This document shows, one piece after another, positions 8,745 to 55,124 of a stretch of DNA of 64,000 nt. Under the pieces are notes generated by a model, which worked only from the letters and a program-made list of their open reading frames with translations, did no database searches and was not told the origin of the DNA. The DNA comes from Selaginella moellendorffii (taxonomy: Eukaryota; Plantae; Lycopodiophyta). The translations under genes were made by a program, and so were the position numbers. Each line of letters begins with the position of its first letter. Positions within the stretch are counted from its first letter, which is position 1. Location of the stretch: assembly GCF_000143415.4 (NCBI RefSeq), contig NW_003314369.1:1-64000 (forward strand), given 5' to 3'.

Positions 8745-9891
8745 TGTAAGGAACCAACTCGCCGAGGTGTCGTAGGCTAAAGGATCCCCGAAAGCATGAC
8801 CAAAATGATAAAGAGTTCATCGGATGGGACAAAGTCTGAGATCGAGTCCAAGACCGACTCTAAGACCGAGTTTGAAATAGAGTCCGAAATCGAGTCCGCG
8901 GCCGACTCGGAGGCCGATTTCGAGACCGAGTTTGAGACCGAGTTCGAGACGGAGTCCGAGATCCGAAATCGGGTCCAAGACCGAGTCCGAGGTCGGGTCC
9001 GAAATTGGGTCCGAGATCGAGTCCGAGACCGAATCCGAAGTCGGATCCGAGATCGAGTCCGAAATCGAGCCAGAGACTGAGTCCGAGTACTAATACGGGT
9101 CAAGGGGTGAAAGCCCAAAGCGTGCGTCCCCCAGGGGGGGGGGGGGGGGGGGGGGGGCTGCAGGGGGTTCCAAAAGTATAGTAGGGATAGGGAGGTTTAG
9201 GAACCAGTTTTGAAAGAACTCTTCAGTGGGGCTTCCAAACTGACTTAAGGTTGGGATTGGGACCGAGGGGCCTTGGGTGGGAGTGAGCATGGACTTGGTT
9301 GGTGCCGGAGGGGCCATCCAAGGAAGTGCTCAAGAGCAGCTCCCACTCTCGACAGGGAAATCGATTGCGGTGCTCCCGGCTCATGTGGAGTGGTGCCCCA
9401 CTTGAGTACCATGCGGCTCATTGGTCCTTGACCTTCTTAAGGGCTTGGGCCTTCCTTCGGGATGGAAGTGGGGGGGTAGAGGTACCCATACCGGGCCGCT
9501 AGACCACAGTGTTTCGCCCCGGCGTCCCGAAGCAAGTGTTGCACTCAAGACTTGGGATTTAGAGGGTCCCATGATCAAGTCTTGTGGTACCAAGGGATGT
9601 TAGGAACCTGGACGCTTGGTGTGTTTGGCTGCTTGTGCTTGCGGGGAGTGTAGCCGAACCTTAAGTCCAGTCTAACCCGGGGAGGGGGATTGGGAGTGAT
9701 TTGGGAATCCGTGGATGGATGGCTAACACTCCGTTGCTCGTGTAGTGAGTAGCTGAAACCAAGTAGGACCAAGTAGGAGCTGGTACCATAGGCGAGAACC
9801 TTGGCAAGGGAACTTAGCAAAAGCCAAGGCAGTGTTGGACGGATAGACGAGGTAAGCTGGCAAATTGGAAAGGAAAAATTTGTGGCTCACA
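8745..9891 (+). repeat. 5' LTR of chromovirus copy 1
   Basis: Direct repeat of 15854-17004 and 46378-47535; contains a hexamer array at 8835-9088 and a poly-G run. Confidence 0.95.
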
Positions 9892-9894
9892 ATT

Positions 9895-9906
9895 TGGTAT
9901 CGGAGC
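9895..9906 (+). promoter_or_regulatory. Primer-binding site for tRNA-iMet
   Basis: TGGTATCGGAGC 3 nt after the LTR end; canonical sequence is TGGTATCAGAGC. Confidence 0.9.
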
Positions 9907-9950
9907 ATTTTCCTCAGTTCTAGTGAAGGATAGAGGTGGATTGCTGGGAG

Positions 9951-12900
9951 ATGGCAAAGGCAAGGCGAAAGCGAACCAAGGCGGAGACGGAACCTCCTCC
10001 AGAGCTGGAGCCTCCGGTCGAACGAGAGGCTATGGATGAGGAATCCTTGCATGAGGAGGACTCCAGTGAGGAAACTTCCAAACAGGAGTCCGGTGGCGAG
10101 GTTCGGTCGTCCAAGGCTCGATTGGATATGCTAGAAGGACAGTTGGCACAGACCAATGCCCTGCTGGAGACTCTCGTATGCATGACGAGAAGTGGAAGAA
10201 AAAGCGAAAGACTGCGGATGTTGGCAGCGTAGAAGGTGCGGACCATTTGGTAGGGACTGAGGCAGAACCAAACAAGGTTGAACAGACTGAAGTGGAATCA
10301 GTCCCTCAGGCAGTTCCCAAGTACAAACCAAAGCCCCCACCGGTCTTCAAGGGAGTGAATGACTATAAGGTGGTGGAGGATTGGTTTTACAATATGGAGG
10401 ACTACTTCCGAGCGTTGCAATTACCAAGCTCACAGAAGGTCCCATGTGCAAAACCATACTTGGCAGATAATGCCAAGTCTTGGTGGAGAACAACAGAGGC
10501 CAACGAAGGACCGGTGGCCACTTGGGACATGATGAAGGCGAGGATCCGCGCGACTTACATTCCTCCGAATGCTACTCTGCATCTAAGAGACGAGTTGAGT
10601 AGGCTGAAGCAGACCGAAACCATTCAGGAGTATGTGAATGGGTTTATGGCAAAGAGGATACTTATCACGGACATGGGGTATATGGATGCGTTCCATGCCT
10701 TCATATTGGGCTTGCAAACCTGGGCTCGAAGCGAGGTGATGCGTTGGAACCCGACCAATTACAAAGAAGCGTTGGATGTGGCTATCAAGGTGCATTTCAA
10801 CAATAACCTGCGAAAGGGGAACACGACGGGGCCGGGGTCCATGTTTAACAAAGGGGCCAAACCAAGGGGAACATATAGCAAGAGGAAATTCAAGAAGAGT
10901 TTCTCTAAGAATGAGTCCTCAGGGTTCCGGAAAGGCAAATCCGGTGGCCAGCGAGCAAGTACGTGGGGGAGTCAAGCAAAAAGAGACAAACCCACGGATA
11001 AGAAGGTCAAGTCGTTTAGTAGCATGGGAAACAACGTATGTTACAACTGCGGTGAAGCGGGACACTTTTCGAGGGAATGTCCCTACCCAAAGAAGGCCAG
11101 AGCATATATGGCCATTAAATTGGGTGAAGTCCAAAATGAGGTATGTGATCTAGTCCCTAGCTCAAAGTTACTTATTACACGAGCAACTTTGGTAGAGAGT
11201 CGTTCGCGACATCTACTAGCCCTCCGAGGGAAGCTCGGAGGTAGCTTTGTTAAAATCCTTATTGACACGGGTGTTTCGGATAATTTTGTGGCTACAGACA
11301 TAGTCCGGCAAGCCGGACTAATGGTGCAGCGGCTGAGCGAACCAAGGACTATAGAGTTTGTTCAAGGTAGCTAAAGCACCGATGAGGTACTTTGACAAGC
11401 GAAAGTCGAAGTAGGGACTTGGAAAGTAGACATGGATTTCACCATGTTGGACATGGCGGGATTTGACGTGATCTTTGGGATGGATTGGTTCAATCGGTTT
11501 GTGGTAGCCCTGCATGGACAAGGTAGGAACCTTGTGGTATTAGCAAATGCCCAAGGAAGAAGATCCAGGGTGGAGGCCCAGGATCTAAAGGTAGGGCAAT
11601 GCAAGGCCAAAGATTCGTGCCTAAATGTAGCGCACCTTATCTCTCTCCCCTTAAGCCAACTGGAAAAGGGGCAATTGCTTGATGAGAAAGCCCTTAGTGG
11701 CTATTTTATCCCCATTTATCCCCCAAGGTTCCAAGGATCCACGGCGACAGTATATCCAAATCTCATCCCATGATCATATGCGCTACACTAAACCTGGTGT
11801 CCACGAGAGGACAACTCACTAAAGGGATAAAGGTTGCATTTTTGTGCTTACTCTCGGTGAGAAGTGACAAAAAGACAGAAACGGAAGAAGTACCTTTAGT
11901 GATCCAGCGGGTGTTGGACCAATTCTAGAATACCATGCCGGAGGAGGAGCTACCGGCGGGGTTGCCCCCCGCACGACCGATAGAACATAAGATTGAGCTG
12001 GTCGAGGGTGCTGAGGCGGTGGTTCGTCCACCCTATCGTTTGAACGAAAAAAAACTTGCGGAGCTCAAGCGCCAACTAGAGGAGTTGGTGGACAAAGGGT
12101 ATGTTAGGTTGAGCAAATCACCGTATGGGGCACCGGTGCTATTTGTGAAAAAGAAAGATGGATCTATGCGCATGTGCATAGACTATCTGTTGCTTAAAAA
12201 AAATATACAAAGAAGAACAAGTACCCTTTGCCAAGGATTGAGGACCTGTTCAATAGGTTGGGAAAGGCAAAATACTTCTAGAGGATTGACCTTAGGTCAG
12301 GATACTACCAGATCAGGGTAGCAAAGGAAGATGTCGAGAAGACAACCTGTCGAACGAGGTATGGGAGCTTCGAGTTTTTGGTGATGCCCTTCGGGCAATG
12401 CAATGCGCTGGCAATGTTTTCGGCGTCGATGAACCATATCTTTGTACCCTATCTGGATCACTTTATGGTCGTCTATATTGACGACATCCTAATCTATAGC
12501 GAAACGCTAGAAGAGCATGCCAAACACTTGACGAAGGTGTTTGAGAAACTAAGGAAACACCAGCTGTATGCTAAAGAGAGCAAATGTGACTTTGCTCAGC
12601 AAGAGGTAAAGTTTCTCGGGCATGTGGTGGGCAAGGACGGGCTCAAGGTGGACCCTGAGAAGGTCCAAGCAATCCAGGATTGGGAGCGACCATCGAATGT
12701 ACACAAGTTAAGGGCATTCTTGGGGCTATACAACTACTATCGAAAGTTTATCAGACACTATTCGAGAGTAGCACTACCCTTAACGGACCAAACGGGAAAA
12801 GAGAAGATGGTATGGACAGCAGAATGCGAGGCGGCATTCGTCCACCTCAAGGGGAAGTTGAGGAAGGCTCCTGTGTTAGCGTTACCAGACTTTGGTAAGG

Positions 12901-13765
12901 ACTTTGAGGTAGAAACGGATGCTTCAGACTTTGCGTTGGGCACAATTTTGAAACAAGACAACCATCCAGTAGTGTTCTTCTCGAAGAAGTTGGACAAGGC
13001 TCAACGGAAATGGCCTGCCCACGAGAAGGAATTGTTTGCGGTGGTCAAGGCGCTCAAGGAGTAGCGACACTACCTTGGGAGACACTTCAAGGTTTACACG
13101 GACAATGTGGCAACGAAACACTTCTTGTCACAGCCCAATCTGAGAGGGAAACAGGGCCAGTGGGCCAATGCTTTGGCCGAGTTCGATTGCAAGATTTTGT
13201 ACAAGCCTGAAAAGAGCAACATCATGGCAGATGCGCTAAGTCGAAAAGTGAGCTTGAAGTTAGTGATATCCAGCACAACAGCAACCTTTTGGGATGATGT
13301 GCGGACAGCATATGAGAATGGTGGTCTAGCACAAGAAGTGTTGCTGTAGAATCTAAAGGCACAGGAAGCCCACAAAAGAGGTGAGCTGCCAACATAAGAG
13401 AAAATGGGCTATGCAGAACGCAACGGACTCATCTATTACAAGCAAACAAAGGTGTATGTTCCAGAAGGGGAACTAAGGAAGGTAGCCTTAGAAGAGTGTC
13501 ATGACGGACCTCTTGCGGGACATGGCAGAGTGCCCAAGACAATGGGCTTACTCAAAAGGAAGTACCACTGGCCAGATATGGCTAAGGACGTCCAAGACTA
13601 TGTAAAGACATGTCCAACATGTCAGCAGGTCAAAGCCGTGATTAAGGCTAGTGGGGGCTTGTTACAAAGCATCCCAATTCTAGATCGTCCGTGGAAATGT
13701 CTTACGATGGACTTCATCACGGGACTCCCTCCAAGCGAGGGGTTCGATGCGATATTTGTGGTGGT
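9951..13765 (+). pseudogene. gag-pol of copy 1 (Gag, PR, RT, RH, N-terminal part of IN), disrupted
   Basis: ORF pieces 9936-10232, 10178-11374, 11935-12321, 12378-13064 and 13404-13765, with frameshifts and stops. Confidence 0.9.
11626..11787. mobile_element. 162-bp insertion with 9-bp terminal inverted repeats (mini solo LTR / TRIM-like)
   Basis: TGTAGCGCA...TGCGCTACA ends, 5-bp TSD CTAAA; absent from the paralogous site at ~42880. Confidence 0.9.
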
Positions 13766-15687
13766 CTCACCTCACCACGCCCTAGTATGGGGTCGGGACT
13801 TGAACCCAGCCTTGCTTTACTAGGGGGTTGGGACTCGAACCCAACCTCCATAGAATACGTCTACGGATTCGACATCCCCGCAGGGAGTCGGGCGTAGTTC
13901 CCTACGTCTGGTGGACCTAGCTAACCCATGCTAATTAGCTTACCTTCAGCGTGCCTTCGGGTCCCAACATATGCCATTGCTCAACTTCACAAATATATAC
14001 TTTAATTGAACTTTGCATAAGTACATAGAGTTCTGCCTCGCAGAAATTCCTCCACTAGATCTCGAGCGTTCGCTAGGTTCTCCTCCGGTTCCCATGTTGC
14101 TTCGCAGTGTGGAAATCCTTTCCACTTCACATGGAACTCTCTCACCTCGCATCCTTGTCGCTTGCTCTTGCGCGCATTGAGGATGGCCTCGACTTCGTAT
14201 TCCTCTTCCCCTTGGATAACCTCAGGTAAGGGTCTTAATTGGTCCTTGCGAAGCGGGTCCTCAAAATACGGCTTGAGTAAGTTCACGTGGAACATGGGGT
14301 GCATCTTCCCCATCTCTCAAGGAAGTCGGAGACGGTAAGCCACTTTACTGATTCGAGCCTCAATCTCATAAGGCCCCGCAAACTTGCTTAAGGAACTCAA
14401 GATCAATTCATTTACAGGAATACATGCATTTTTACCTTTGGGTCGACTTCTGGCTGATCCCACTTGGTAGCTTGAGGTTCTTGGTGTTCAGCCACACCTT
14501 CTCCCCAGCTTGGAACTCTACGTCCAAGCACTTCTGGTTTGCGTACTTGGTTTGCCTTTATTGAGCCTGTTCCAAGGAATCCCTCACTAGATTCCAAATG
14601 TTGAGTCTTTCCACCGTGAATGCCTCCACTACGGGTAACTCTCCATGATACTCGGCTACACTGAGTTCCACAGGACTTTCAATAGCTCGCCCATTGATGA
14701 CTTCCCATGGACTCACCCCGATGCTCGAATGTGGTGAGTTGTTATAACACATTTTCGCAAGTCCCAAATGACTTACCCAATCGGTCTAGTCTCTTGAGAC
14801 ATAGCATCGCAAATAATCCTTTAGTTGCTTATTCACCCTTTCCGTTTGTTTGTCAGTCAAGAAGTGTTAGTGCCATCAAACTTGACTTAATACCCAATAC
14901 TTGTCTGTGGGTGGTAGGCTATGCTAAATTTCAACTTGGTGCGATACTGTTCCAAGAGTGTTCTCCAGAACCTACTGGTGAAGATCTTATCTCGATCCGA
15001 GATAATCCGGACCAAAACCAAAACCCGAGTTAGGTGGGACGTGGTAGGAGCTGAAGTTGGGACCACAGTGTGGGAGGCCCTTGGACGGGCGAGATGGGAG
15101 GTATGGCGGGCTTCCGGGGTACAGGCACTCTGGGAGGCTCGGAACCGCAACCACTTCGAAGGGCAGTGCGCTCGGATTTCAGCGATCATGGCGAATTGGT
15201 GGAGGCTCACACTGGCTGCTATCCGCTTGAGGGACACGCTGCTCCAGGAGCATGGGAAAAACAGGGAGGCGCTCACAGCTTGGCAACAACTATGGATTCC
15301 GTGCTACGGGACTGAACACGAGGGGGAGGTCAAGTGGAAATGGAGACCTTCGGACACGGTAGCAAAGGAGGCTCGACGTGGCGATCTGGCACTGGATGCA
15401 CTGCGGAGGCGACGACCACAGCAGCCACGTTTGGAGGGCAGCAATCACTATTAGGTAGAGAATTGCAGGACAGCGTAGTTGAGTGAACAGCGCTAAGGGA
15501 TTCTCGTTTTTTGTATCAGTCCCTAAAGGACTTGGAGAAATGTACATACATGTTGCATCGATCTGAGATAATCTCTTCTGGCCTTCCCCACACTCGAACC
15601 ACTTGTTCAAAGAGCAGCTTTGCCACACCTTCCGCATCCACTTCCATTGTGGTGGGTATGAAATGTGTCATCTTCGAAAATCGATCC
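13766..15687 (-). other. Internal inversion carrying integrase core, chromodomain and part of the 3' UTR of copy 1
   Basis: Reverse complement is collinear with ~44849-46204 of copy 2; re-inverting restores VVVDRFSK. Confidence 0.92.
15008..15557 (+). mobile_element. 5'-truncated LINE (non-LTR retrotransposon) 3' end
   Basis: 16-bp TSD TCGATC(C/T)GAGATAATC at 14992-15007 and 15558-15573; W-rich LINE ORF2 C-terminal motif [16 protein letters not shown]; absent from copy 2. Confidence 0.8.
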
Positions 15688-15853
15688 GAGTATAGGGACA
15701 CCTATATTCCGTTGTCATGGGCTCTTGGCCGGGGAGGCTAACTTAGGCACACCACTAAGTGGGGGGATGCCCCCGGAGACATGGTCAACAAATCGTAGGA
15801 TAAAAAAGAGACGTTCGATGTGGGCATCGAACTTCTTCTATGGGTGGTGGAGT

Positions 15854-17004
15854 TGTAAAGAACCAACTCGCCAAGGTGTCGTAGGCTAAAGGATCCCCGA
15901 AAGCATGACCAAAATGATAAAGAGTTCATCAGATGTCCAAGACCGACTCTAAGACCGAGTTCGAGATAGAGTCCGGAATCGAGTCCGCAGCCGACTCGAA
16001 GGCCGATTTCGAGACCGAGTTCGAGACCGAGTTTGAGACGGAGTCTGAGATCTGAAATCGGGTCCGAGACCGAGTCTGAGGTCAAGTCCGAGGTCGGGTC
16101 TGAGATCGGGTCCGAGATCGAGTCCGAGAGCGAGTCCGAGACCGAATCCGAAGTCGGATCCGAGATCGAGTCCGAGATCGAGCCAGAGATCGAGTCTAAG
16201 TACTAATACGGGTCAAGGGGTGAAAGCCCAAAGCATGCGTCTCCCAGGGGGGGGGGGGGGGGGCTGCAGGGGGTTCCAAAAGTATAGTAGGGATAGGGAG
16301 GTCCAGGAACCAGTTTTGAAGGAACTCTCCAGTGGGGCTTCCAAACTAACTTAAGGTTGGGACTGGGACCGAGGGGCCTTGGGTGGGAGTGAGCATGGAT
16401 TTGGTTGGTGCCAGAGGGGCCATCCAAGGAAGTGCTCAAGAGCAGCTCCCACTCCCGACAGGGAAACCGATTGCAGTGCTCTCGGCTCATGTGGAGTGGT
16501 GCCCCACTTGAGTACCATGCGGCTCATTGGTCCTCGCCCTTCCTAGGGGCTTGGGCCTTCCTTCGGGATGGAAGTGCGGGGGGGGGGGGTAGAGGTACCC
16601 ATACCGGGCCACTAGACCATGGTGTTTCGCCATGGCGTCCCGAAGCAAATGTTGCACTCAAGACTTGGGATTTAGAGGTTCCCATGATCAAGTCTTGTGG
16701 TACCAAGGGATGTTAGGAACCTGGAAGTTTGGTGTGCTTGGCTGCTTGTGCTTGCGGGGAGTGTAGCCGAACCTTAAGTCCAGTCTAACCCGGGGAGGGG
16801 GATTGGGAGTGATTTGGGAATCCATGGATGGATGGCTAACACTCCATTGCTCGTGCAGTGAGTAGCTGAAACCAAGTAGGACCAAGTAGGAGCTGGTACC
16901 ATAGGCGAGAACCTTGGCAAGGGAACTTAGTAAAAGCCAAGGTAGTGTTGGACGGATAGACGAGGTAAGCTGGCAAATTGGAAAGGAAAAATTTGTGGCT
17001 TACA
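15854..17004 (+). repeat. 3' LTR of chromovirus copy 1
   Basis: Direct repeat of 8745-9891, preceded by the G-rich tract TGGGTGGTGGAG. Confidence 0.95.
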
Positions 17005-26500: not shown

Positions 26501-27050
26501 AGGAAATCCTAAGTTGTCATTTAGTCAAACAGACTTGACACGGTGATGAGAAACTCATGATGTTGGCTTGCACTTGCTAGTGTTGGGAACCCCCGCAATA
26601 TTGAGTTTGGTCCCTCAATATTCGCTAGATGATAGCTTACCATGTCTGCCAAACACCTTCACTATCATGCCCTTAGCGTTAGTCTCAATTCGGTCCCAAA
26701 TGCTATTTATGGAAAGTGTCCAGATTTGCTCATTTGGCATGTCTACGGAATGTAGAGATCGGTCTGAACATAATGGTGTTCGTCCCGTGTCCAAATTCGC
26801 AATCTAACGCCATTCCATATTTAGTAAGTTTCGAGCTTGTCCCAGAGACTAACTCCTGGTATTAAGGGTAGGCTTGGTACCTTCGTTTAGTGGCCCAAAA
26901 CCTCAGGTTCCTATGGATACGTGGCGTGGACATGTGGCATGTGACACATGGCATTTGTCACGTGGCACAAAGATGGTTTAGGTACCGCTTCGTGATGTTA
27001 TCCTATGGTAAATCACCATAGGATAAAGGGTCAAAACCACGTGCGCTACA
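20599..27050 (+). mobile_element. Non-coding LTR element (LARD-like)
   Basis: LTRs 20599-21755 and 26323-27050 (TG...CA), TSD ACCTA, PBS TGGTATCAGA after 21755, PPT AGGGGGGGAGAG before 26323; 4.6-kb interior with no ORF over ~85 aa. Confidence 0.9.
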
Positions 27051-37900: not shown

Positions 37901-39062
37901 AAACTCAAACCTATATCAACCAACACAGAGAGGATAATAGGAGACCTCTTGTTATAAAGACGAGCTTGGAAAGTAAACACTGGATGAATTGGTGCCGAGT
38001 GAACCCCTTGATGATACTCCCGAAAGAAAGATGGAGGGGTCACTGACTTATTCGCGCAAGGTCCCTCCATTACTCGTGCGACTCCTCGTTTCCCGGATGT
38101 ATCTCGGTGTCCAAACCTTCCACGACAGCAGCACCAATAGGACGTTGCTGACGCCAAGGTCTCCACCTAGGAAATGGGGTCGCCAATCCGGAAAACGCCG
38201 GCAACACCGATAAGTATGACCAACTTCATCACATGCCCAGCAGTGAACATCACGGCCACGACCACATCCTCGCCCTTGGCCTTGGACTCGAGCAGTAGCA
38301 GCATCAACCTCCATTGGAACAGGACCATCACCCACAAGAAGTGGAGTTGAAGGACGTGCAGCGAGAAGTGGAAGAGGCGATGTCTCATAACATTGTGCCA
38401 AGCGAAGAGCATCATCAAGGGTGGCAGGAGCAAGTGCATGCACAATTCTGACAAGATCTTGATGAAGTGCTGGCCACAACATTCCTAGCTTGATCCGCTT
38501 TGACATATTTGGCTCCGCACGAAGCAAAAGACTTCGGAAACGAACACCAAATTGCATCACCGACTCAAATGGCCCTTGGTGAAGACGATGCAATTGTTAG
38601 AAGGCATTGTCACAGTCGTCAGCATGTCCAAAGGCACGTTTGAAAATGTCTGGGAGAACACTCCAATCCTCACGAGTGGCTGCGCTCAAACCATTGTACC
38701 ACTGCAACGTCGTCCCTTGAAGACATGTGGGAAACTCACGTAAACGTCAAGTATCATCCCAAGAATGATATGTGGCAATCATTATGAAGTGATCGAACCA
38801 ATGGTACACATCATCCCCAGGATTCCCGCGAAAGAACTCCGGCCAAACGCGAGGATTAGCACCAAAAGTAGGAGGAGTTGTACTACGTGCCGTGAATGCC
38901 GCCATCAACTGAGTTCGGTTGTTCAATTGCAAGTGCATAGCATCAAGCAATTGTACCAATTGTTGCTCCAGAGTCAAAGGAGGAGATTGTTGATCTACTA
39001 TGAAGACAAACGAACTGCTAATATTAGTATATGGCATCGTAACCGTACACTTGGCCCTCACA
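34984..39062 (-). mobile_element. Short-LTR Ty3/gypsy element with 4-bp TSD, RNase H absent
   Basis: 3' LTR 34984-35158 (175 bp, TG...CA), 5' LTR remnant ~39018-39062, PPT GAGAGGAGGGGA, TSD CCTT; gag (PVPMEVD, CWACDEVGH), protease LVDIG, RT FIDD, integrase DLMGPFP and YHPQSDGLVE, WKGPY. Confidence 0.9.
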
Positions 39063-39301
39063 CCTTGGCAATATAATATAAAATATTTTCGAGAAGTTAA
39101 CATCATACTATCAGATTAATTATTATAGATAAATCCAACCAAAGATCAATTATTTTAACTAAATCTAACCATAGAAGTGATTCATTACCACATAGAAGTT
39201 GCTAAAAGGGAGCTAGATGCACAATAACAGCTTTAGTTGACATTTTCATAAATCCTTAAATATCCTAAAAAAATGTTTTGGAAATAGGAAATTATTAAAA
39301 G

Positions 39302-41180: not shown

Positions 41181-44100
41181 AATTTATGATGAGGACAGAC
41201 ATTCCCTGATCACACGGACAAGTGGTGCCACGTCAGCGAGTTCTTTATTGGAACCTCCTCTGATTGGAGACTGCTATAGCTTGGGATGCAATGGCTCGAG
41301 CAAGGTAAGACAAGAATTTCGTGTTTAGTGATTTATCAAGCACCACACCTTAGGAAACATTGAGAGTAGCATCAACAAAAAAATTCTTTACTCGGCATAA
41401 ACCAATGCCCTGCTGAAGACTCTCGTGCGCAAGCTAAAGCGTGACGAGAAGCAGAAGAAAAAGCAAAAGACTGTGGATGCTAGCAGTGCAGAGGGTGCAG
41501 ACCCTTCGGTAGGGACTGAGGTAGAACCAAACAAGGTTGAACAGACTGAAGTGGAATTAGTCCCTCAGGCAGTTCCCAAGTACAAACCAAAGCCCCCACC
41601 GGTCTTCAAGGGAGTGAATGACTATAAGGTGGTGGAGGATTAGTTTTACGATATGAAGGATTACTTCCGAGTGTTGCGGTTACCGAGCTCGGAGAAGGTC
41701 CTATGTGCAAAACCATACTTGGCAGACAATGCCAAGTCTTAGTGGAGAATAACAAAGGCCAACGAAGGACCGGTGGCCACTTGGGAAATGATGAAGGCGA
41801 GGATCTGTGCAACATATGTTCCTCCGAATGCTACTCTGCACCTAAGGGATGAGCTGAGTAGGCTGAAGCAGACCGGAACCATTCAAGAGTATGTGAATGG
41901 ATTTATGGCAAAGAGGATACTGGTCACGGATATGGGTGATATGGATGCGTTCCATGCCTTCATATCAGGCTTACAAACCTGGGCTCGTGGTGAGGTGATG
42001 CAATGGAACCCGACCAACTACAAGGAAGCGTTGGATGCGGCCATCAAGGTGCATTTCAACGATAACCTGTGAAAGGGGAACATGACGGGGTCGGGGTCCA
42101 CGTTTAGCAAAGGGGCCAAACTAAGGGGGACGTATAGCAAGGGAAATTCAAAAAGAGTTTCTTTAAGATCGAGTCCTTTGGGTTCCGGAAAGGCAAATCC
42201 GGGGGCCAGCGAGCAAGTACGTGGGGGAGTCAAGCGAAAAGAGACAAACCCACGGATAAAAAGGTCAAGTCGTTTAGTAGCGTAGGAAACAACGTATGCT
42301 ACAACTGCGGTGAAGCGGGACACTTTTCCAGGGAATGTCCCTACCCGAAGAAGGCCAGAGCTAATATAGCCATTAAGTTGGGTGAAATCCAAACTAAGGT
42401 ATGTGATCCAGTCCCTAATTCAAAGTTACTCATTATACGAGCAACTTTGGTAGAGAGTCATTCGTGACATCTATTAGCCTTCCGAGGGAAGCTCGGAGGT
42501 AGCTTTGTTAAAATCCTTATTGACACGGGTGCTTCAGATAATTTTGTGGCTGCAGACATAGTCTGGCAAGCCGGACTAACGGTGCAGCAGTTGGGCGAAC
42601 CAAGGACTATAGAGTTTGTTCAAGGTAGCCAAAGCACCGATGAGGTACTTCGACAAACAAGAGTCGAAGTAGGGACATGGAAAGTAGACATAGATTTCAC
42701 CGTGTTGGACATGGCGGGATTTGACGTGATCTTCGGGATGGATTAGTTTAATCGGATCGTGGTAGCCCTGCATGGACAAGGTAGGAACCTTGTGGTACTA
42801 GTGAATGCCCAAGGAAGAAGATCCAGGGTGGAGGCCCAAGATCTAAAGGTAGGGCAATGCAAGGCCAAAGATTCGTGCCTAAACCTGGTGTCCACGAGAG
42901 GACAACTCACTAAAGGGACCAAGGCAGCATTTTTGTGCTTACTCTCGGTGAGAAGTGACAAAAAGACAGTAACAGAAGAAGTACCTTTAGTGATCTAGCG
43001 GGTGTTGGACCAATTCTAGGATACCATACCGGAGGAGCTACCGGCAGGGTTGCCCCCCGCACGACCGATAGAACATAAGATTGAGCTGGTTGAGGGTGCT
43101 GAGGCAGTGGTTCATCCCCCCTATCGTTTGAACGAAAAAGAACTCGCGGAGCTCAAGCGCCAGCTAGAGGAGTTGGTAGACAAAGGGTATGTTAAGTTGA
43201 GCAAGTCGCCGTATGGGGCGCCGGTGTTATTTGTGAAAAAGAAAGATGGATCTATGCGCATGTGCATAGACTACCGGTTGCTCAACAAGTATACAAAGAA
43301 GAACAAGTACCCTTTGCCAAGGATTGAGGACCTGTTCAATAGGTTGGGAAAGGCAAAATACTTCTTGAGGATTGACCTAAGGTTAGGATACTACCAGATC
43401 AGAGTAGCAGAGGAAGATGTTGAGAAGACAACCTGTTAAACGAGGTATGGGAGCTTTGAGTTTCTGGTGATGCCCTTCGGGCTATGCAATGCGCCGGCAA
43501 CATTTTCGGCCTTGATGAACCACATCTCTGTACCCTATCTGGATCACTTTGTGGTCGTCTATATTGACAACATCCTGATCTATAGCAAAACGCTAAAGGA
43601 GCATGCCGAACACTTGAGAAAGGTGTTTGAGAAACTAAGAGAACACCAGTTGTATGCTAAAGAAAGCAAATGTGACTTTGCTCAACAAAAGATAAAGTTT
43701 CTCGGGCATGTGGTGGGCAAGGACGGGCTCAAGGTTGACCTTGAGAAGGTCCAAGCGATCCAGGATTGGGAGCGACTATCGAATGTACACGAGTTAAGGG
43801 CATTCTTGGGGGTATGCAACTACTACCGAAAGTTTATCAGACACTATTTGAGAGTAGCCCTGTCCTTAACGGACCAAACAGGAAAAGGGAAGATGGTATG
43901 GACAGCAGAATGCGAGGCGGCATTTGTCCACCTCAAATGGAAGTTAAGGAAGGCTCCCGTGTTGGCATTACCAGACTTCGGACTCTGAGGTAGAAACGGA
44001 TGCTTCAGACTTTGCGTTGGGGGCGCAATTTTGAAGCAAGACAACCATCCAGTAGCGTTCTTCTCAAAGAAGTTGGACAAGGCTCAACAGAAGTGGCCTG

Positions 44101-45069
44101 CCCACGAGAAGGAATTGTTTGCGGTGGTCAAGGCGCTCAAGGAGTAGCGACACTACCTTGGGAGACACTTCAAGGTTTACACGGACAATGTGGCAACGAA
44201 ACACTTCTTGTCACAGCCCAATTTGAGAGGGAAATAGGGCCAGTGGGCCAATGCTTTGGCCGAGTTCGATTGCAAGATTTTGTACAAGCCTGAAAAGAGC
44301 AACATCATGGCAAATGCGCTAAGTCGAAAAGTGAGCTTGAAGTTAGTGATATCCAGCACAACAGCAACCTTTTGGGATGATGTGCAGACAGCATATGAGA
44401 ACGATGGTCTAGCACAAGAAGTGTTGCTGCAGAATCTAGAGGCACGGGAAGCCCACAAAAGAGGTGAGCTGCCAACATAAGAGAAAATGGGCTATGCAAA
44501 ACGCAACGGACTCATCTATTACAAGCAAACAAAGGTGTATGTTCCAGAAGGGGAACTAAGGAAGGTAGCCTTAGAAGAGTGTCATGACGGACCTCTTGCA
44601 GGACACGGTGGAGTGCCCAAGACGATGAGCTTACTCAAAAGGAAGTACCACTGGCCAAATATGGCTAAGGACGTCCAAGACTATATAAAGACATGCCCAA
44701 CATGTCAGCAAGTCAAAGCCGTGACTAAGGTTAGTGGGGGCTTGTTACAAAGCATCCAAATTCTAGATCGTCTGTGGAAATGTCTTACGATGGACTTCAT
44801 CATGGGACTCCCCCCAAGCGAGGGGTTCGATGCGATGTTCATGGTGGTGGACCTATTTTCGAAGATGGCACATTTCATACCCACCACAATGGAAGTGGAT
44901 GCGGAAGGTGTGGCGAAACTGTTCTTTGAACAAGTGGTTTGAGTGCGGGGAAGGCCAGAAGAGATTATCTCAGATCAAGATAAGATCTTCACCAGTAGGT
45001 TCTAGAGAACTCTCCTGGAACAGTATCGCACCAAGTTGAAATTCAGCACAGCCTACCACCCACAGACAG

Positions 45070-45116
45070 GTATTGGGTATTAAGTCAAGTTTGATGGCAC
45101 TAACACTTCTTGACAG
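45070..45116 (+). other. 47-nt GT-AG intron in the integrase core (copy 1 equivalent 14854-14900, minus strand)
   Basis: G|GTATTG...CTAAC...TTGACAG; removal gives AYHPQTD(R)Q(M)ERVN. Confidence 0.85.
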
Positions 45117-45534
45117 ACAGACAAATGGAAAGGGTGAATAGGCAGCTGAAGGATTATTTGCGATGTTATGTCTCAGGAGACTAGACCGATTGGGTAAGTC
45201 ATTTGGGACTTGCGAAAATGTGTTATAACAACTCACCACATTCGAGCATCGGGGTGAGTCCATGGGAAGTCATCAATACGCGAGCTATTGAAAGTCTTGT
45301 GAAACTCAGTGTAGCCAAGTATCATGGAGAGTTACCCGTAGTGGAGGCATTCACGGTGGAAAGACTCAACATTTGGAATCTAGTGAGGGATTCCTTGGAA
45401 CGGGCTCAACAAATGCAAACCAAGTACGCAAACCAGAAGTGTCTGGATGTAGAGTTCTAAGCTGGGGAGAAGGTGTGGCTAAATACCAAGAACCTCAGGC
45501 TACCAAATGGGATCAGTCGGAAGTTGACCCAAAG

Positions 45535-45586
45535 GTAAAAATGCATGTATTCCTGTAAATGAATTGATCTTGAGTACCTTAAGCAG
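45535..45586 (+). other. 52-nt GT-AG intron before the integrase GPY/F motif (copy 1 equivalent 14384-14435, minus strand)
   Basis: AG|GTAAAA...TTAAGCAG|G; removal gives SRKLTQRFAGPYEI. Confidence 0.85.
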
Positions 45587-46377
45587 GTTCGCGGGGCCTT
45601 ACGAGATTGAGGCATGAATTGGTAAAGTGGCTTACCATCTCCAACTTCCTCAAGAGATGGGGAAAATGCACCCAGTGTTCCACGTGAACTTACTCAAGCC
45701 GTACTTTGAGGATTTTCTTCGCAAGGACCAAGTAAGACCTTTACCTAAGGTTATCCAAGGGGAAGAGGAATACGAAGTCGAGTCCATCCTCAATGCGTGC
45801 AAGAGCAAGTGACAAGGATGCGAGGTGGGAGAGTTCTATGTGAAGTGGAAAGGATTTCCATACTGCGAAGCAACATGGGAACTGGAGGAGAACCTAGCGA
45901 ACGCGTGAGGTTTAGTGGAGGAATTTCTACAAGGCAGAACTCTATGTACTTATGCAAAGTTCAATTAAAGTATCAATTTGTAAAGTTGAGCAATGGCATA
46001 TGTTAGGACCTGAAAGCGTGCCGAAGGTAAGCTATTTAGCATGGATTAGCTAGCTCGACCAAGCGTAGGGAACTACGCCCGACTCCCCGCGAGGATGTCG
46101 AATCCGTAGACATATTCTACGGAGGTTGGGTTTGAGTCCCAACCCCCTAGTAAAGCAAGGCTGGGTTCAAGTCCCAACCCCATACTATGGCGTGGTGAGG
46201 TGAGGAGTATAGGGACACCTATATTCCGTTGTCATGGGCTCTTGGCCGGGGAGGCTAACTTAGGCACACTGCTAAGTGGGGGGATGCCCCCGGAGACATG
46301 GTCAACAAGTCGTAAGATAAAAAAAAAAAGAGAGACGTTCAATGTGGGCATCGGACTTCTTCTATGGGTGGTGGAGT

Positions 46378-47535
46378 TGTAAGGAACCAACTCTCCAAGG
46401 TGTCATAGGTTAAAGGATCCCCGAAAGCATGACCAAAATGACAAAGAGTTCATTGGATGGGACTGAGTCGAAAATCGAGTCCAAGACCGACTCTGAGATC
46501 GAGTTCGAGATAGAGTCCGGGATCGAGTTCGAGGCCAAATCAAAGACCAAATCAAAGACCGAGTTCGAGACCGAGTTCGAGACAAAGTCTGAGATCCAAA
46601 TTGGGTCCGAGACTTAGTTCGAGGTCGAGTCCGAAGTTGGGTCCGAGATCGGGTCCGAGATCGAGTCCAAGATCGAGTCCGAGACCGAGTCCAAAGTCAG
46701 GTTCGAGATCAAGTCCGAGATCGAGTCCGAGATTGATTCTGAGTACTAATACGGGTCAAGGGGTGAAAGCCCAAAGCATGCGTCTCCCAGGGGGGGGGCT
46801 GCTGCAGGGGGTTCCAAAAGTATAGTAGGGATAGTGAGGTTCAGGAATCAGTCTTGAAGGAACTCTCCAGTGGTGCTTCCAAACTGACTTGAGGTTGAGA
46901 CTAGGGCTGAGGGTCCTTGGGTGGGAGTGAGCAGGAACTTGGGTGGTGCCAGAGGGGCCACCCCAGAAAGTGCTCAAGAACAGCTCCCACTCCTAAAAGG
47001 GAAACCGACTGTGGTGCTCCCAGCTCATGTGGAGTGGTGCCCCACTTGAGTACCTTGCGGCTCATTGGCCCTCGCCCTTCCTAGGGGCTTGGGCCTTCCT
47101 TCGGGATGGAAGTGGGGGGGTAGAGGTACTCATATCGGGCTGTTAGGCCATGGTGTTTCACCCCAACATCCTGAAGCAAGTGTTGCACCCAAGACTTGAG
47201 ATTTAGAAGGTCCCATGATCAAGTCTTGTGGTACCAAGGGGTGTTAAGAACCTGGAGGCTTGGTATGATTGGCTACTTGTGCCTGCGGGGAGTGTAGCCG
47301 AACCTTAAGTCCAGTCCAACCCGGGGAGGGGGATTGGGAGAGATTTAGGAATCTGTGGATGGATGGTTAACGCTCTATTGCTTGTGCAATGAGTAGTTGA
47401 AACCAAGTAGGACCAAGTAGGAGTTGATACCATAGGTGGGAACCTTGGTGAGGGAACTTAGCAAAAGCCAAGGCAGTGTTGGACGGATAGACGAGGTAAG
47501 CTGGCAAGTTGGAAAGGAAAAATTTGTGGCTTACA
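46378..47535 (+). repeat. 3' LTR of chromovirus copy 2
   Basis: Homologous to 8745-9891; TGTAAG...TTACA ends. Confidence 0.93.
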
Positions 47536-49219: not shown

Positions 49220-49660
49220 CAACGGATTGATGCCCTGCATTTTTTCCGAAGGCATACAAGGACTGGGATATTCCTTTGCAGATGCCTCTGCACCGAGTTT
49301 TTCTAGGAGCAGCTTGGCGAAAATCCAACTTTTCCATTGAAAGACCTAATTAAACTAGGAGGCAGGAAACAAAAAAAAGGTGCCTGGAAACATTCTAATA
49401 TCGATCAAGTCAACTTGGATTCTCAGTGTGTTGAAGGATGGTGGAGGTGAAGTCTGTGTTGGGATCTTTGCAATGGCACACCATTGATGGAAACGTTGGA
49501 GTTTGGATCCTCAATGCAAAAATCCTGGAGAAGATGCACAAAAAGAGTGCGCTGTTGGTATATGAAATTGCAAAAACTCAAGACAAAATACTTGGTATGA
49601 ATCTGTGACCTCTGCTCGACAGTATTTATTTGCAGTGCTCAATAGTGTCGAGAGACAATT
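49220..49660 (-). pseudogene. Inverted degenerate germin-like gene copy including its promoter
   Basis: Reverse complement gives caggatttttgcattgaggatccaaactccaac...ttcacctccaccatcctt...gacttgatcgatattagaatgtttccagg, matching 50815-50995; upstream part matches 50660-50735. Confidence 0.8.
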
Positions 49661-49739
49661 TTTTTACATATACAAATCATTTTCCAAAAAGTTGTTTGAG
49701 AAGGTTTAAACGAGTTTATTAAGTTTGTGATAACACTCA

Positions 49740-49772: not shown

Positions 49773-50734
49773 AAATATTAATTTGATAAATCAGCTAGAA
49801 GCAAACCCAGAAGAGCCTTGTCTCTAACCCATAAAAGCTTATAAAATTCAAAGAGCAAACAGCAAGCCAGATCTAGGATAGTAACCTTTTCTCTTATGTT
49901 CATTAGCGTCTCTTTGTGTTTCTACTTTAGTCAGACTTCCTATCAAATTATATTATTATATTTGTCATCAACACGTTCCTCATTCTTTTATTCAAGTATC
50001 TTCGCACCTCCTCACAATCGTGCTGTGGGCCAAGCAGGGAATGAGGAGGACTTTTTATGCTTAGAAGATCAGCCAGTGACGAGAGCCTTGAAATCCAAGA
50101 GGTGGCCCAAGTCTGGCCCCACCTTATAAGGATGAAAGCTCATTGATCCAGTAGCTTGGACAAAACAATCTTTGTAACACTTGCATGCACACATTTTGAG
50201 AAGATCTGAGGCATTAACAATTAACACAACACACTTCTAAGTACAAAAATAATTCAAGGCTTGAGCCTTTTAATCCACAGCCCTTGGGATCACCTTGAAT
50301 GGAAGTGAATTGAGTCATTGCTGTGCTAAGTTAATTCTTCCAAGCGGAGTTTTTCCGTGGCTGGATCTCTGTCAACTTTTCAAAGTGTGCACTGTTTACC
50401 GTGGAGATTTGCGGTTGATAGAGGTTTCCTTTATTGTTGAAATTTCAGTTCTAGAAACGTTTTAAAAAGTCTGATTTATAAGTCTCCGAATTTTCCATGC
50501 TACCTTTCACGGCTCCTCTTCTTTTGAGCTCGTTCACTCAAGATCCACTACTTCACGCCAACGGGTGACATGACATATCGTTGTCTCTGCATAATGTATA
50601 CATGACCATGAGAAACAATTAAAAATTATAGCTCTCGATGCCATTTCTGCGAATAAATACCAGCGAGCAGAGGCCACAGATTCATACCAAGTAGTTTCGT
50701 CTTGAGTTTTCACAATTTCAAGTGTTCTATACCA

Positions 50735-51388
50735 ATGGCTCTCATCAAAATTGTCACGGTGTCATTCTTTCTGTGCTTAACTATTATTGGAGTGTTGGGC
50801 GATGAGGATCCTCTCCAGGATTTCTGCGTCGAAGATCCAAACTCCAATGTGTTCATCAACGGAGTTCCTTGCAAAGATCCCACCACAGTCACTGCCGATG
50901 ACTTCACCTCCACAATCCTTCGTCAGGCTCCAGTCATAAACAACACACTGCGAATCCAAGCCGACTTGATCGATATCAGACTGTTTCCAGGCCTCAACAC
51001 GCAGGGACTCTCCATTGCTCGCCTTGCATTCGGTCCATTTGGCGTGAATCCTCCGCACAACCATCCCCGAGCGTCCGAGGTCATCTGGCTCCTCCAAGGA
51101 CGCCTCTATGTTGGATTTGTGTCAACTTCCAACCGGTTGTTTGCAAAGGTTTTATATCCCGGTGATCTGTTCATCTTTCCCAGGGGACTAGTTCACTTCC
51201 AGCGAAACCTGGATAAGTCGGACACGGTTGCGGTGGCTGCGCTTGGAAGTCAAAACCCAGGACGAACAGACATTGCTAGAGCATTGTTCCAGACCACTCC
51301 AGACATCATGAACGAAGTTCTGGAGGCAACTTTGCAGGTTGACGAAAATGAGATTGATGAGTTACGACGTGGAGTGAGTCGGACTTGA
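50735..51388 (+). CDS. GLP: Germin-like protein (cupin), intronless
   Basis: Signal peptide, DPLQDFCV, GLNTQG, germin box GVNPPHNHPRASE, FIFPRGLVHFQ. Confidence 0.95.
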   Translation: MALIKIVTVSFFLCLTIIGVLGDEDPLQDFCVEDPNSNVFINGVPCKDPTTVTADDFTSTILRQAPVINNTLRIQADLIDIRLFPGLNTQGLSIARLAFGPFGVNPPHNHPRASEVIWLLQGRLYVGFVSTSNRLFAKVLYPGDLFIFPRGLVHFQRNLDKSDTVAVAALGSQNPGRTDIARALFQTTPDIMNEVLEATLQVDENEIDELRRGVSRT

Positions 51389-51713: not shown

Positions 51714-54700
51714 TTGGGAGTCGATCAGCTGACGTGGCATGTCCACGTGAGTTTGAGTCATGTAAAAAGAGTCGGAACACAATGAACGAGCTCATGAGTG
51801 TTATGTCCATCCCTTTTCACATCACAACATGGTATCGGATTTCGGGGACGATCCTGGTTGGTTGATTTGACGTTGCTGTCACGGCCGCTTCAACCCCACC
51901 ACCGCCGCTGCTGCCGCCGCCGCCGCCGCCACCAGTCTTCTCTCACGATCTTCTAAATCGATATTTTACATAGTAACCCTGCCCTATTATATTGGCGGCG
52001 ATGGAAGCTCTGTGGCACGAATTTCTTCACATGGGCGACAAGAATCAGGCTGATCCTCTCTGTGAAACGAGCGTGGAACATCGTTGATGGGACTTCGCAC
52101 GATCTTCGTGGCCCAAGCAGTAAATTCTTCCATGTTGCTGAATCATGGCGCTTCACATGGAAACGGATGAAACCATTGCTGTGTACGTGGGACGGATTCG
52201 AGGGCTAATGGCTGAATTGACTGGTGCTGGGTCTCCTGTCACGGACGATCGCGCCAGGGCGTTGCTGCTTGCAACCGTCACGCCTGCATTTAGCACGCTC
52301 GCATCTGTTCTATCTCACATGGCCATGAACTTTGATCGTCACTATTGCCACAAACCTGGACACTTGGCGAGGGATTGCAAGAAGAAGAAAGCTGATCGTG
52401 CTAAAGCTGCCAAGAACAAAGACAAAGAAAACAAAGACAAGGGCTCTGGGACTCCTCGTAAGCTCTTGATGGCTCGCTCTGCAAGCAGCAGCCACCAGCC
52501 CGTGCTCGGACCAGAGCTGTGGCTGGATTCTGGAGCGTCATTCCATATGACGCCCATGGCTTCCTTGTTCTTTGACTACCAAGAACCGTGTGAGCGTGAC
52601 GCCGTGGGACTCGGTGACTCCTCTGCTCACGACGTGCTAGGCAAAGGAACAATCAGGGTTCAGCTCTCTTCTGGAGAAATCCGGGAGATCTATCCTGTGT
52701 CGTATGTTCCGGGACTCACACACACGCTGCTGTCGATTGGAACTGCTGCTCAAGTAGGCTTCGATACTCTGTTCACAGCACAGGGAGCGTTGCTGGATGC
52801 CGAGACTGGAGACAAGGTCGCTTTTGGAGTTCCAGTTGATACGCTCTACCGCCTGGATGCTCACGTGATCCTTCCACCTGTGACACTTGCAACCTGGCAC
52901 GAGCGCCTTGGTCACGTGAACGAGCAACAGCTCAAAAAGGTGGATGTTCCTGTGGCGCTTGGGAGTGCGCTGCCCTTCTGCGAAGCTTGTGTTGGTGGAA
53001 AACACGTATTTCCTTTTCCACAGATTTCTCATTCTCGAGCAAGTTCTGTTCTTGAGTTAGTACATTCGGACGTTTGTTCGATTATGGTTGAATCTTTGGG
53101 AGGCAAACGTTACGTCGTCACCTTCCTGGATGATTACACGCGGTACCTGATCGTGTACCTGCTGGCTCATAAGTCAGAAGTGTTCTCCTGTTTCAGCCAA
53201 TACAAGGCTTTGGTAGAAAAGCTACACGACTGTTTAGTTCGTGTGCTCCGCTGCGATCATGGAGGAGAATTCGTCTCTGGAGACTTCGAGACGTTTTGTG
53301 CTGAAGCTGGGATCCAGCGCCAGTATGCTGTCCCTGATGCACATGCCCAGAGTGGTGCTGCCGAGAGGGTGAATCGCACCATCATAGAAGCTGCATGCTG
53401 TATGCTGCTTCACGCGGGAATGCCGGCTGCTTTCTGGGGAGAGGCAGTTAACACGGCTGTTTATGTTCGAAACCGGTTGCCAACACGTGCCCTGCCTGGG
53501 AAGACCACTCCTTATGAGCGTTGGACTGGTCACGCACCTGGTTACGATCATCTCCGCATTTTTGGCTGTTTCGCCTATGCACACGTTCCACACAAGCAAC
53601 GCCGAAAGCTGGAGTCAAAGGCTGAGCCATCCATTTTCCTGGGATATTTGGAAGGCATGACAGGATATTGCCTTTATTCTCTCAAGCGCAAGACTTTGCT
53701 GGAAGGACGGGATGTGCTCTTTGATGAGAGCAAGCTCTACAAGGATTGCACTGAAATTCCTGCTCCTACTTTCGTGGAACTCCAGCTGGTGGACACAGTT
53801 CACGTGACTACAGCTCCTTCTCAAGTCCCATTGCTGCCTCTTGCTCCTGCTGATGGTAACGTGGTGGTTCCTCCAGCACTGCCACCATGCCCTTTAGCTA
53901 CGCCTCTGCAAGAATCTCCTCCAGTGAGAACATTTAGCTTCTCTGAAGAGCTGATGAACACTTACTTCAAGGGCGACGAGGAATTTCAAGCTGCTCCTGA
54001 GTTCTTCCTCGTCTCATCTTCAGTGGGAGCTGGACGTGGATCATCACCTTCAGTGGGAGCTGGAAGCAGGTCGCCAACTTCAGTGGGAGCTCTCCCAGAC
54101 TCTCCACTTGTTCCACCACCTGTGATCCACCCTCCAGCACGTCCTGAACCACGGCGCTCTGCTCGAGTTCCCGTACCATCGAGGCTGCAACTGGAAGCTG
54201 AGCAATCTCGTCCCTTCTTTAGTTTTGGAAAAATTAAAAAGAAAGGAACGCACCAGGCTAACTTCGTGGCTGCTAATCCAGAGCAAATCCCCATTCCAGC
54301 GAATGTTGACGAGGCATTAGCTAGACCTCATGCTGCCCAATGGCAAGAAGCCATGAATGCTGAAATGCATTCGCATGAGCGAAACAATACAATGACAAAG
54401 ACAACCTTACCTGAAGGTGCTCACCCTGTGAGCTCGAAATGGATTTACACAGTCAAGTACAAACCTGATGGAACTGTAGTAAAGTTCAAGGCCAGGTTTG
54501 TCGCGCGGGGATTCAGCCAGATTCCAGGTTTGGAATACATGGAGACGTACTCACCAGTTGTGAAGTTGACCTCTGTGCGAGTGATCCTTGCACTGGCTGC
54601 CAAGTACGACCTGGAACTGCACCAGTTGGACGTTCGCACTGCTTTCCTGCACGGCAAGTTGAACGAGGAGGTCTACATCAAGCAACCACCTGGATTCGTC

Positions 54701-55124
54701 AAACCTGGTGAGGAACATCTTGTTTGCAAGCTCAATCGCGCCCTGTATGGGCTTAAACAATCCCCGAGGGTTTGGTATGAACACATTGATGCGTTCTTCA
54801 AGAGCCTGGGGTGTGTTCCTCTTGCAGTGGAAGGAAACGTGTACCTGTACAAGTGTGGTGACGATTTTCTCCTGGCTTTGGCTTGAGACTCCTTTGAACG
54901 CCATCGCGCTGCACTGGGAGTCTGCTCTCCATCTGTTTCGGCTGAGTGGGAGGGGTAGTCCATCCTCTCAGCTGATCGAGCCAGAGTGGGAGTGTCGAGA
55001 TCGATCAGCTGACGTGGCATGTCCACTTGGTCATGAGTCATGTCCCTTGGAGTCATGTAAAAAGAGTCGGAACACAATGAACGAGCTCATGAGTGTTATG
55101 TCCATCCCTTTTCACATCACAACA
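51714..55124 (+). mobile_element. Ty1/copia retrotransposon with short LTRs, internally deleted
   Basis: LTRs ~51714-51829 and 54993-55124, TSD GTCCA(T), PBS TGGTATCGGA, PPT AGAGTGGGAG. Confidence 0.92.
52145..54886 (+). CDS. Copia polyprotein (Gag knuckle, PR, IN, partial RT), truncated before YVDD, RNase H missing
   Basis: CHKPGHLARDC, WLDSGASFHM, WHERLGH..CEAC, LVHSDV, KARFVARGF, LDVRTAFL, LYGLKQS. Confidence 0.9.
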   Translation: MALHMETDETIAVYVGRIRGLMAELTGAGSPVTDDRARALLLATVTPAFSTLASVLSHMAMNFDRHYCHKPGHLARDCKKKKADRAKAAKNKDKENKDKGSGTPRKLLMARSASSSHQPVLGPELWLDSGASFHMTPMASLFFDYQEPCERDAVGLGDSSAHDVLGKGTIRVQLSSGEIREIYPVSYVPGLTHTLLSIGTAAQVGFDTLFTAQGALLDAETGDKVAFGVPVDTLYRLDAHVILPPVTLATWHERLGHVNEQQLKKVDVPVALGSALPFCEACVGGKHVFPFPQISHSRASSVLELVHSDVCSIMVESLGGKRYVVTFLDDYTRYLIVYLLAHKSEVFSCFSQYKALVEKLHDCLVRVLRCDHGGEFVSGDFETFCAEAGIQRQYAVPDAHAQSGAAERVNRTIIEAACCMLLHAGMPAAFWGEAVNTAVYVRNRLPTRALPGKTTPYERWTGHAPGYDHLRIFGCFAYAHVPHKQRRKLESKAEPSIFLGYLEGMTGYCLYSLKRKTLLEGRDVLFDESKLYKDCTEIPAPTFVELQLVDTVHVTTAPSQVPLLPLAPADGNVVVPPALPPCPLATPLQESPPVRTFSFSEELMNTYFKGDEEFQAAPEFFLVSSSVGAGRGSSPSVGAGSRSPTSVGALPDSPLVPPPVIHPPARPEPRRSARVPVPSRLQLEAEQSRPFFSFGKIKKKGTHQANFVAANPEQIPIPANVDEALARPHAAQWQEAMNAEMHSHERNNTMTKTTLPEGAHPVSSKWIYTVKYKPDGTVVKFKARFVARGFSQIPGLEYMETYSPVVKLTSVRVILALAAKYDLELHQLDVRTAFLHGKLNEEVYIKQPPGFVKPGEEHLVCKLNRALYGLKQSPRVWYEHIDAFFKSLGCVPLAVEGNVYLYKCGDDFLLALA

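Follow-up and report, generated by a model that had tools for sequence, protein, structure and literature searches.

Element copies and the divided integrase gene

Two copies of one Ty3/gypsy chromovirus were found in the window, i.e., the whole 64,000-nt stretch of Selaginella moellendorffii DNA that was analyzed (contig NW_003314369.1, positions 1 to 64,000). The copies and the sites assigned to them were as follows.

8745..17004, + strand: copy 1, an LTR-to-LTR element with an internal inversion and two nested insertions
9895..9906, + strand: motif resembling a primer-binding site, downstream of the 5′ LTR in copy 1, assigned by sequence
14854..14900, - strand: intron 1 in copy 1, in the inverted segment, acceptor TG, 46/47 letters shared with copy 2
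14384..14435, - strand: intron 2 in copy 1, in the inverted segment, acceptor AA, 50/52 letters shared with copy 2
41394..47535, + strand: copy 2, a decayed Ty3/gypsy chromovirus, 87-93% alike to copy 1, with RT, integrase, SH3, and Chromo Pfam matches
46364..46377, + strand: polypurine-tract-like site before the 3′ LTR of copy 2, assigned by sequence and position
46378..47535, + strand: 3′ LTR of copy 2, with TG..CA ends, a 12-nt repeat array, and G runs

Copy 1 had TG..CA ends, paired LTRs of approximately 1.15 kb, and the target duplication CAAAG on both sides. With this 5-bp target duplication, the copy is one that was inserted by retrotransposition. The two LTRs were 95.1% identical over aligned columns (K2P 0.051), and the primer-binding-site-like motif presumably corresponds to tRNA-Met. 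Copy 2 was without the 5′ LTR and the start of gag, and both copies had decayed through stops and frameshifts. The domain order Gag-(PR)-RT-RH-IN was recovered from Pfam matches to gag, RT, a weak RNase H linker, and integrase, and the tblastn alignment to a full polyprotein was continuous up to intron 1. The element had been called a chromovirus in the initial annotation, and the chromodomain at the integrase C-terminus (PF00385, 1e-14) agrees with that assignment. Its LTRs, gag, and RT set it apart from Ginger DNA transposons.

A crude scan found one TATA-like word per LTR and no sign of a BARE-like second promoter; the RNA reads were too few to map RNA ends. In a post hoc comparison, the polypurine tract (46358-46378) paired best with the exon end before intron 1 (45050-45070) at -23.0 kcal/mol, with the next pairing at -22.5; as 5 of 60 random probes performed as well, the pairing was given no weight as evidence.

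The segment of copy 1 from the integrase to the 3′ UTR was inverted (13766-15007 and 15560-15687), and its breakpoints did not lie at splice sites. A 552-bp insertion in this segment (15008-15559) had a near-exact 14-nt duplication at its flanks and a 178-aa open frame with no Pfam match, and it occurred once in the window. Another insertion in copy 1 (11626-11782, 157 bp) resembles a short solo LTR: its ends are TG..CA, its terminal inverted repeat is 8 bp long, and CTAAA is duplicated (5 bp).

The integrase of copy 2 was divided into three coding parts.

44481..45069, + strand: part of integrase exon 1, with the H2C2 zinc finger and the core up to AYHPQT, including the first two Asp of the DDE triad; PF17921 (Integrase_H2C2) 4e-23, PF00665 (rve) 2.1e-09
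45117..45534, + strand: integrase exon 2, with the catalytic Glu, the remaining core, and the linker; no Pfam match alone, weak match to the Ty3 integrase 7q5b (E 0.032)
45587..45968, + strand: integrase exon 3, with GPY/F, the SH3-like domain, and the chromodomain; PF24626 (SH3_Tf2-1) 2.8e-14, PF00385 (Chromo) 1e-14

Intron 1 (45070-45116, + strand) was 47 nt long with GT..AG ends, interrupted an Asp codon in phase 1, and carried GACAG at both ends and a CTAAC branch-like site whose A was 14 nt before the intron end. Intron 2 (45535-45586, + strand) was 52 nt long with GT..AG ends, interrupted an Arg codon in phase 2, and was located at an AG|GT site. The two inserts thus had the positions, sizes, GT-AG ends, and CTAAC site given in the initial annotation. 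Its further claims on coding also held: excision of both introns yielded a single frame (AYHPQT|DRQMERVN ... KLTQR|FAGPY ... chromodomain), and retention of intron 1 led to a stop after four codons (TAA, 45081-45083). Retention of intron 2 led to an immediate stop (TAA, 45536-45538). The chromodomain was in frame only once both introns were removed. After intron removal, the spacing from the second Asp to the Glu was 35 residues (D-35-E). A random insert of either size would have GT..AG in some equivalent register with a probability of approximately 0.007, and both inserts would with a probability of 5e-5.

In the six residues around junction 1, gaps were absent from all 120 homologous integrases; junction 2 was reached by 86 homologs, of which 75 were likewise gapless there. 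The nearest homologs (49-52% identity) were uninterrupted at the intron 1 site. When 268 homologs were examined for a retained-intron reading, 34 had no HPQT-type motif, and none of the 234 with the motif (220 canonical and 14 other) had such a reading. A DNA pattern search for a donor straight after AYHPQT retrieved 37 metagenome loci and one viral locus, and none of these 38 matched integrase. Protein searches retrieved no family member above 52% identity and no match for exon 2 alone.

Copy 1 contained both inserts at the matching positions with mutated acceptors, as had been claimed from the letters of the window. Apart from the loss of both acceptors in copy 1, there was one difference between the copies among the other 95 intron letters. 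For comparison with the host, 22 introns were taken from a predicted gene, which we take to be PRMT5, and 21 were kept after one mis-called 82-nt case was dropped. These predicted introns were 45-66 nt long with a median of 53 nt, so the description of the 47-nt and 52-nt inserts as host-like in size was appropriate. With a matrix built from the 21 host introns, the element donors scored 6.3 and 6.4, which is mid-range for the host (0.4-9.1), and the acceptors scored 8.3 (intron 1) and 2.0 (intron 2) in a host range of 0.7-14.8. The T content was 33-34% in the element introns and 22% in the exons, with a host intron median of 41%.

Short direct repeats flanked both introns (5 and 4 letters fit either side), a pattern that would fit insertion accompanied by a duplication or by repair. 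Apart from copy 1, the introns matched nothing else in the window (best further match 12 nt), so that a source among introners was not evident. As the nearest homologs are continuous at site 1, a gain of the introns in the lineage of this element would fit the alignments. Two clean frame-restoring introns are as expected if the integrase had to stay working at each gain. On the - strand of the window, a different Ty3/gypsy element (35350-39115) was without these introns, as its integrase aligned in one piece over the homologous positions.

Selection was assessed by comparing copy 1 and copy 2. With a mutation-context control, exons 2 and 3 had 22 silent changes vs. 20.6 expected (P 0.39). The raw pN/pS of 0.41 in these exons was considered as a sign of selection and was rejected, since it vanished under the control. 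RT and gag likewise had no excess of silent changes (P 0.09 and 0.06, respectively), so the two-copy test lacks power.

Spliced RNA and intron-bearing family DNA

Four runs were mapped across the whole of copy 2. X21, X22, and X23 were recorded as RNA-seq, and X18 (9 records) was only guessed to be RNA, having two loose ends in common with the three known RNA runs. The element was barely expressed, with 71, 27, and 43 reads in approximately 12% of the three RNA-seq runs, and most of these reads fell on an LTR fragment within another transcript. Two joints only were listed in the RNA, and they corresponded to intron 1 and intron 2. The exact 47-nt GT..AG skip of intron 1 was found in two studies, namely in a single raw read from X21 and in an X18 contig (depth 3.1). 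The first mate of the X21 joined read was on the minus strand, which is the sense orientation in the usual stranded library. The exact 52-nt GT..AG skip of intron 2 was found in one study, in a 734-nt contig of X18 (guessed RNA). This joined contig had 59 differences from copy 2 and was therefore approximately 92% alike, which is the level between copy 1 and copy 2. X22 and X23 had no joint at the introns, and their depth there was under 1. X19 and X20, also guessed to be RNA, gave 6 records, none of which was spliced; they kept intron 1 (two), entered intron 2 (three), or stopped short.

Because spliced joints occur in RNA, the two integrase inserts are genuine spliceosomal introns. As far as a mere three joined records can show, splicing does take place but is incomplete. 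The junction reads proposed as a check in the initial annotation were thereby found as exact skips (two records for intron 1 and one for intron 2). Two further fragments were seen inside other transcripts. A fragment of the element's LTR (46996-47350) was embedded in a transcript of other origin, and its loose ends were identical in all four runs mapped; an exon 2 fragment of the element family (45201-45559) was part of another transcript with a depth of 77.8 in X19 and the same loose end in X20.

Intron retention in the family was evaluated with the DNA run X1, of which 8606 records were mapped on 44895-45794 in 30 depth bins. The summed depth inside the introns matched that of the flanks, at 1.03 and 0.81 million, respectively, vs. 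a 30-bin median of approximately 0.79 million. A search for intronless copies had been suggested in the initial annotation; no exact intron loss was present among the 15 of 22 DNA joints listed, all of which were irregular rearrangements with depths of 129-287. Of the remaining seven, two could be assigned to different joints, and five, all weaker, fell outside the listing. Of the three conditions set in the initial annotation for refuting its reading, the lack of spliced reads and the lack of the inserts in family members were thus not borne out; on the third, the decay of splice signals, the two copies compared offered only the loss of both acceptors in copy 1. Old copies carry intron 1, as records only 81-86% alike to the window copy spanned it with no skip. 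None of the eight splice-site letters was among the 40 of 288 variants listed, which indirectly indicates that most family copies keep GT..AG. Records crossing both introns were also present in X4, a run with another organism label. The DNA depth, together with the breaks in the published consensus discussed below, establishes that the introns are family-wide. A few intronless copies are possible, because contigs drop rare variants and five joints were outside the listing.

SM1-Galahad, known systems, and explanations for intron retention

The element is most likely SM1-Galahad of S. moellendorffii, matched on host, lengths, and ORF and LTR layout rather than on the consensus sequence. SM1-Galahad was described with hundreds of copies of approximately 7.5 kb and LTRs of 1076/1146 bp with G runs of 11-25 (Novikov et al. 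2012, PMC3350952). The window element occurs in the same species or one very near it, as the best matches of a host gene were from S. moellendorffii at 94% and 70% and the next named match was from a fern at 39%. It is 7.53 kb long without the nested insertions, and has LTRs of approximately 1.15 kb with main G runs of 24, 17, and 9. The published consensus ORF of 3885 bp (1295 aa) stops in the integrase core with no chromodomain, and two more open ORFs of 316 and 309 bp follow, the last with the chromodomain (PMC3350952). In the window element, counted over both copies with two gaps of copy 1 treated as insertions, the distance from the gag ATG to the intron 1 stop was 3885 nt, and the next two frames were 318 and 309 nt. 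As the lengths of the frames agree exactly (3885 and 309) or nearly (316 vs. 318), the breaks between the published SM1-Galahad ORFs are the two introns. The available text of that paper treats the pieces as extra ORFs, with 0 occurrences of ‘intron’ and ‘splic’ (PMC3350952), whereas the same breaks are spliced introns here. The SM1-Galahad introns were thus previously unrecognized in the searchable literature.

In the same account, no intact SM1-Galahad copy was found, and the sister family SM2-Galahad, with one intronless 4731-bp ORF and LTRs 99.7% identical, was described as intact, young, and abundant (PMC3350952). The Galahad family was placed there in the Galadriel clade (PMC3350952), and some Selaginella chromoviruses are unclassified in REXdb. 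The initial annotation was correct on the introns, their splicing, and the chromovirus assignment; it had missed this published family with the same ORF breaks, as well as the intronless SM2-Galahad as a possible source of integrase in trans and the precedent of BARE1.

BARE1, a barley Ty1/copia element, has a 104-nt GT-AG intron within its ORF that persists in genomic copies, and a separate pool of uncapped unspliced RNA, arising with the use of two promoters, is packaged (PMC3735527). It therefore resembles SM1-Galahad in keeping a small intron in its DNA copies, and as it does so by means of a packaged unspliced pool, the arrangement reported here is not a wholly new system. Splicing of BARE1 occurs in gag and turns Pol off, whereas the two introns here are in the integrase and splicing would turn the integrase on (PMC3735527). 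Ogre, a plant Ty3/gypsy element, is similar in that partial splicing permits the full polyprotein while the intron stays in the DNA; however, its single intron of approximately 274 bp lies between the Gag-PR and RT-RH-INT ORFs, outside a catalytic domain, and Ogre is not a chromovirus (PMC6317226, PMC12786077). In EVD and other Arabidopsis Ty1/copia elements, alternative splicing also tunes the ratio of element proteins, but it is centered on the protease and makes a short gag RNA; the consulted part of that study reports no conserved splicing in Ty3/gypsy (PMC5580714). Penelope-like elements keep introns after retrotransposition as well, although they have no LTRs and no DDE integrase, and their retention was ascribed to an unusual mechanism (PMC8557442). 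Ginger1 DNA transposons carry Gypsy-like integrase genes with 1-4 GT-AG introns, a likeness drawn from their description without comparison of intron positions, and differ in having terminal inverted repeats and no RNA step (PMC2836005).

The element differs from Ogre, BARE1, and EVD in that its integrase core and GPY/F motif are interrupted by two introns of minimal, host-like type. The literature searched yielded no description of an LTR element with introns in its integrase; Repbase and subscription journals may mention them. That LTR elements transpose via RNA was classically demonstrated by the disappearance of an intron placed in them, and Ogre and EVD are the only intron-bearing plant exceptions named in the part of a 2025 review that was consulted. 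Little is known of the sorting of translated and packaged RNA outside BARE, according to the available text of PMC3735527.

We lean slightly toward a retained-intron switch like that of BARE1 or Ogre, in which the unspliced RNA would be packaged and reverse-transcribed and the doubly spliced RNA would be the sole source of complete integrase. The unspliced RNA would be translated into Gag-PR-RT-RNase H and an integrase stub without the catalytic Glu, and the spliced RNA into the full polyprotein with DDE, GPY/F, and the chromodomain. The spliced RNA would be excluded from reverse transcription, as in BARE1. Such exclusion, rather than a later loss, is suggested by the scarcity of intronless SM1-Galahad copies, since the intronless SM2-Galahad is viable in the same genome. 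Integrase dose would thereby be limited, and the element would depend permanently on host splicing. In favor of this switch are the exact skips in RNA, the presence of the introns in other RNA and in the family DNA, the matching breaks of the published consensus, the two clean frame-restoring introns, the mid-range donor scores, and the precedents of BARE1 and Ogre. Weighing against it are the thin RNA support, with X18 only guessed to be RNA, the loss of both acceptors in copy 1, the missing excess of silent changes in exons 2 and 3 (in a test that fails for RT and gag as well), the failure to find an intact SM1-Galahad copy in 2012, and the single TATA-like word per LTR. Whether an autonomous element gained two host-type introns and kept them through hundreds of retrotranspositions by barring its spliced RNA, with splicing gating integration, is a question on which we are evenly divided. 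Three products could then result from splicing: a dead integrase stub, the complete enzyme targeted by its chromodomain, and, where intron 2 is kept, a catalytic core that has no chromodomain.

In the main rival reading, the introns would be passengers, with SM1-Galahad RNA packaged unspliced, integrase supplied by SM2-Galahad or another relative, and splicing incidental in old copies. Such supply in trans would be in line with the existence of an intact, young, abundant, and intronless sister where no intact SM1-Galahad was found, with the loss of both acceptors in copy 1, and with the failure of the two-copy test to reveal purifying selection on exons 2-3, and the available account of BARE2 offers a precedent of parasitism on a sister family. 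We regard it as somewhat unlikely, because each insert is an intron whose exact removal restores the frame (5e-5 for both by chance), and exons 2-3 retain the Glu, GPY/F, and the chromodomain and can be aligned over the length of full integrases; ORF2 and ORF3 are open as published. The selection test fails for RT also, and supply in trans must still explain the absence of exact intronless copies among the DNA joints listed.

Separate RNA pools would not be needed if splicing were rare in the cells of mobilization and packaging were proportional, so that intronless copies arose rarely or were missed. We consider this quite improbable: an intronless copy should be fully autonomous like SM2-Galahad and would presumably have multiplied in the course of many cycles, and old copies that are 81-86% alike already have intron 1. 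The element donors score like host donors, although the introns are T-poor for the host and the second acceptor of the window copy is low (2.0). Spliced and unspliced RNA records were both seen, at very low counts, and the five DNA joints outside the listing are also compatible with rare intronless copies. Still further from our expectation, and very improbable, is that the element does not retrotranspose with these inserts as working introns, the copies having spread by duplication at the DNA level or the joined RNA having come from rare intronless genomic copies or another family. The small number of RNA records, with one run only guessed to be RNA, and the DNA joints outside the listing leave some room for this. 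Against it stand the paired LTRs, TG..CA ends, and 5-bp target duplication of copy 1, the joined contig at the within-family level of approximately 92%, the joined read from a run recorded as RNA-seq, and the listed DNA joints, which are irregular deletions and not these introns.

A high-copy chromovirus with two minimal integrase introns is a built-in reporter of which RNA is copied, as translated and packaged RNA can be told apart by the size of the PCR products obtained from total, polysomal, and particle RNA. The introns also explain the lack of ‘intact’ SM1-Galahad copies. ORF-based annotation will score active LTR families that bear introns as broken, especially in genomes with tiny introns.

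Other sequences in the window

Another LTR element (20599-27050) had a primer-site-like motif and a T-rich interior of approximately 4.5 kb, in which no frame of at least 110 aa and no match to a gypsy polyprotein was found; it is possibly non-autonomous. LTR-like sequences of three different elements shared a motif (5866-5923, 9105-9162, and 21145-21202); in two of the three, a G run and a TATA-like word came next. A similar short-unit repeat array was also present in the 5.4-5.9 kb region. Between two germin-like (cupin) sequences lay a Ty1/copia element (51721-55124), whose LTRs were short and whose 914-aa frame broke off within RT. An inverted, degraded duplicate of a germin-like gene start (49382-49663 and 50621-50992), with arms 80-90% complementary, could form a hairpin RNA. 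An mpaB/Lcp-like oxygenase gene was accompanied by an inverted partial duplicate (189-1265 and 2087-2405).
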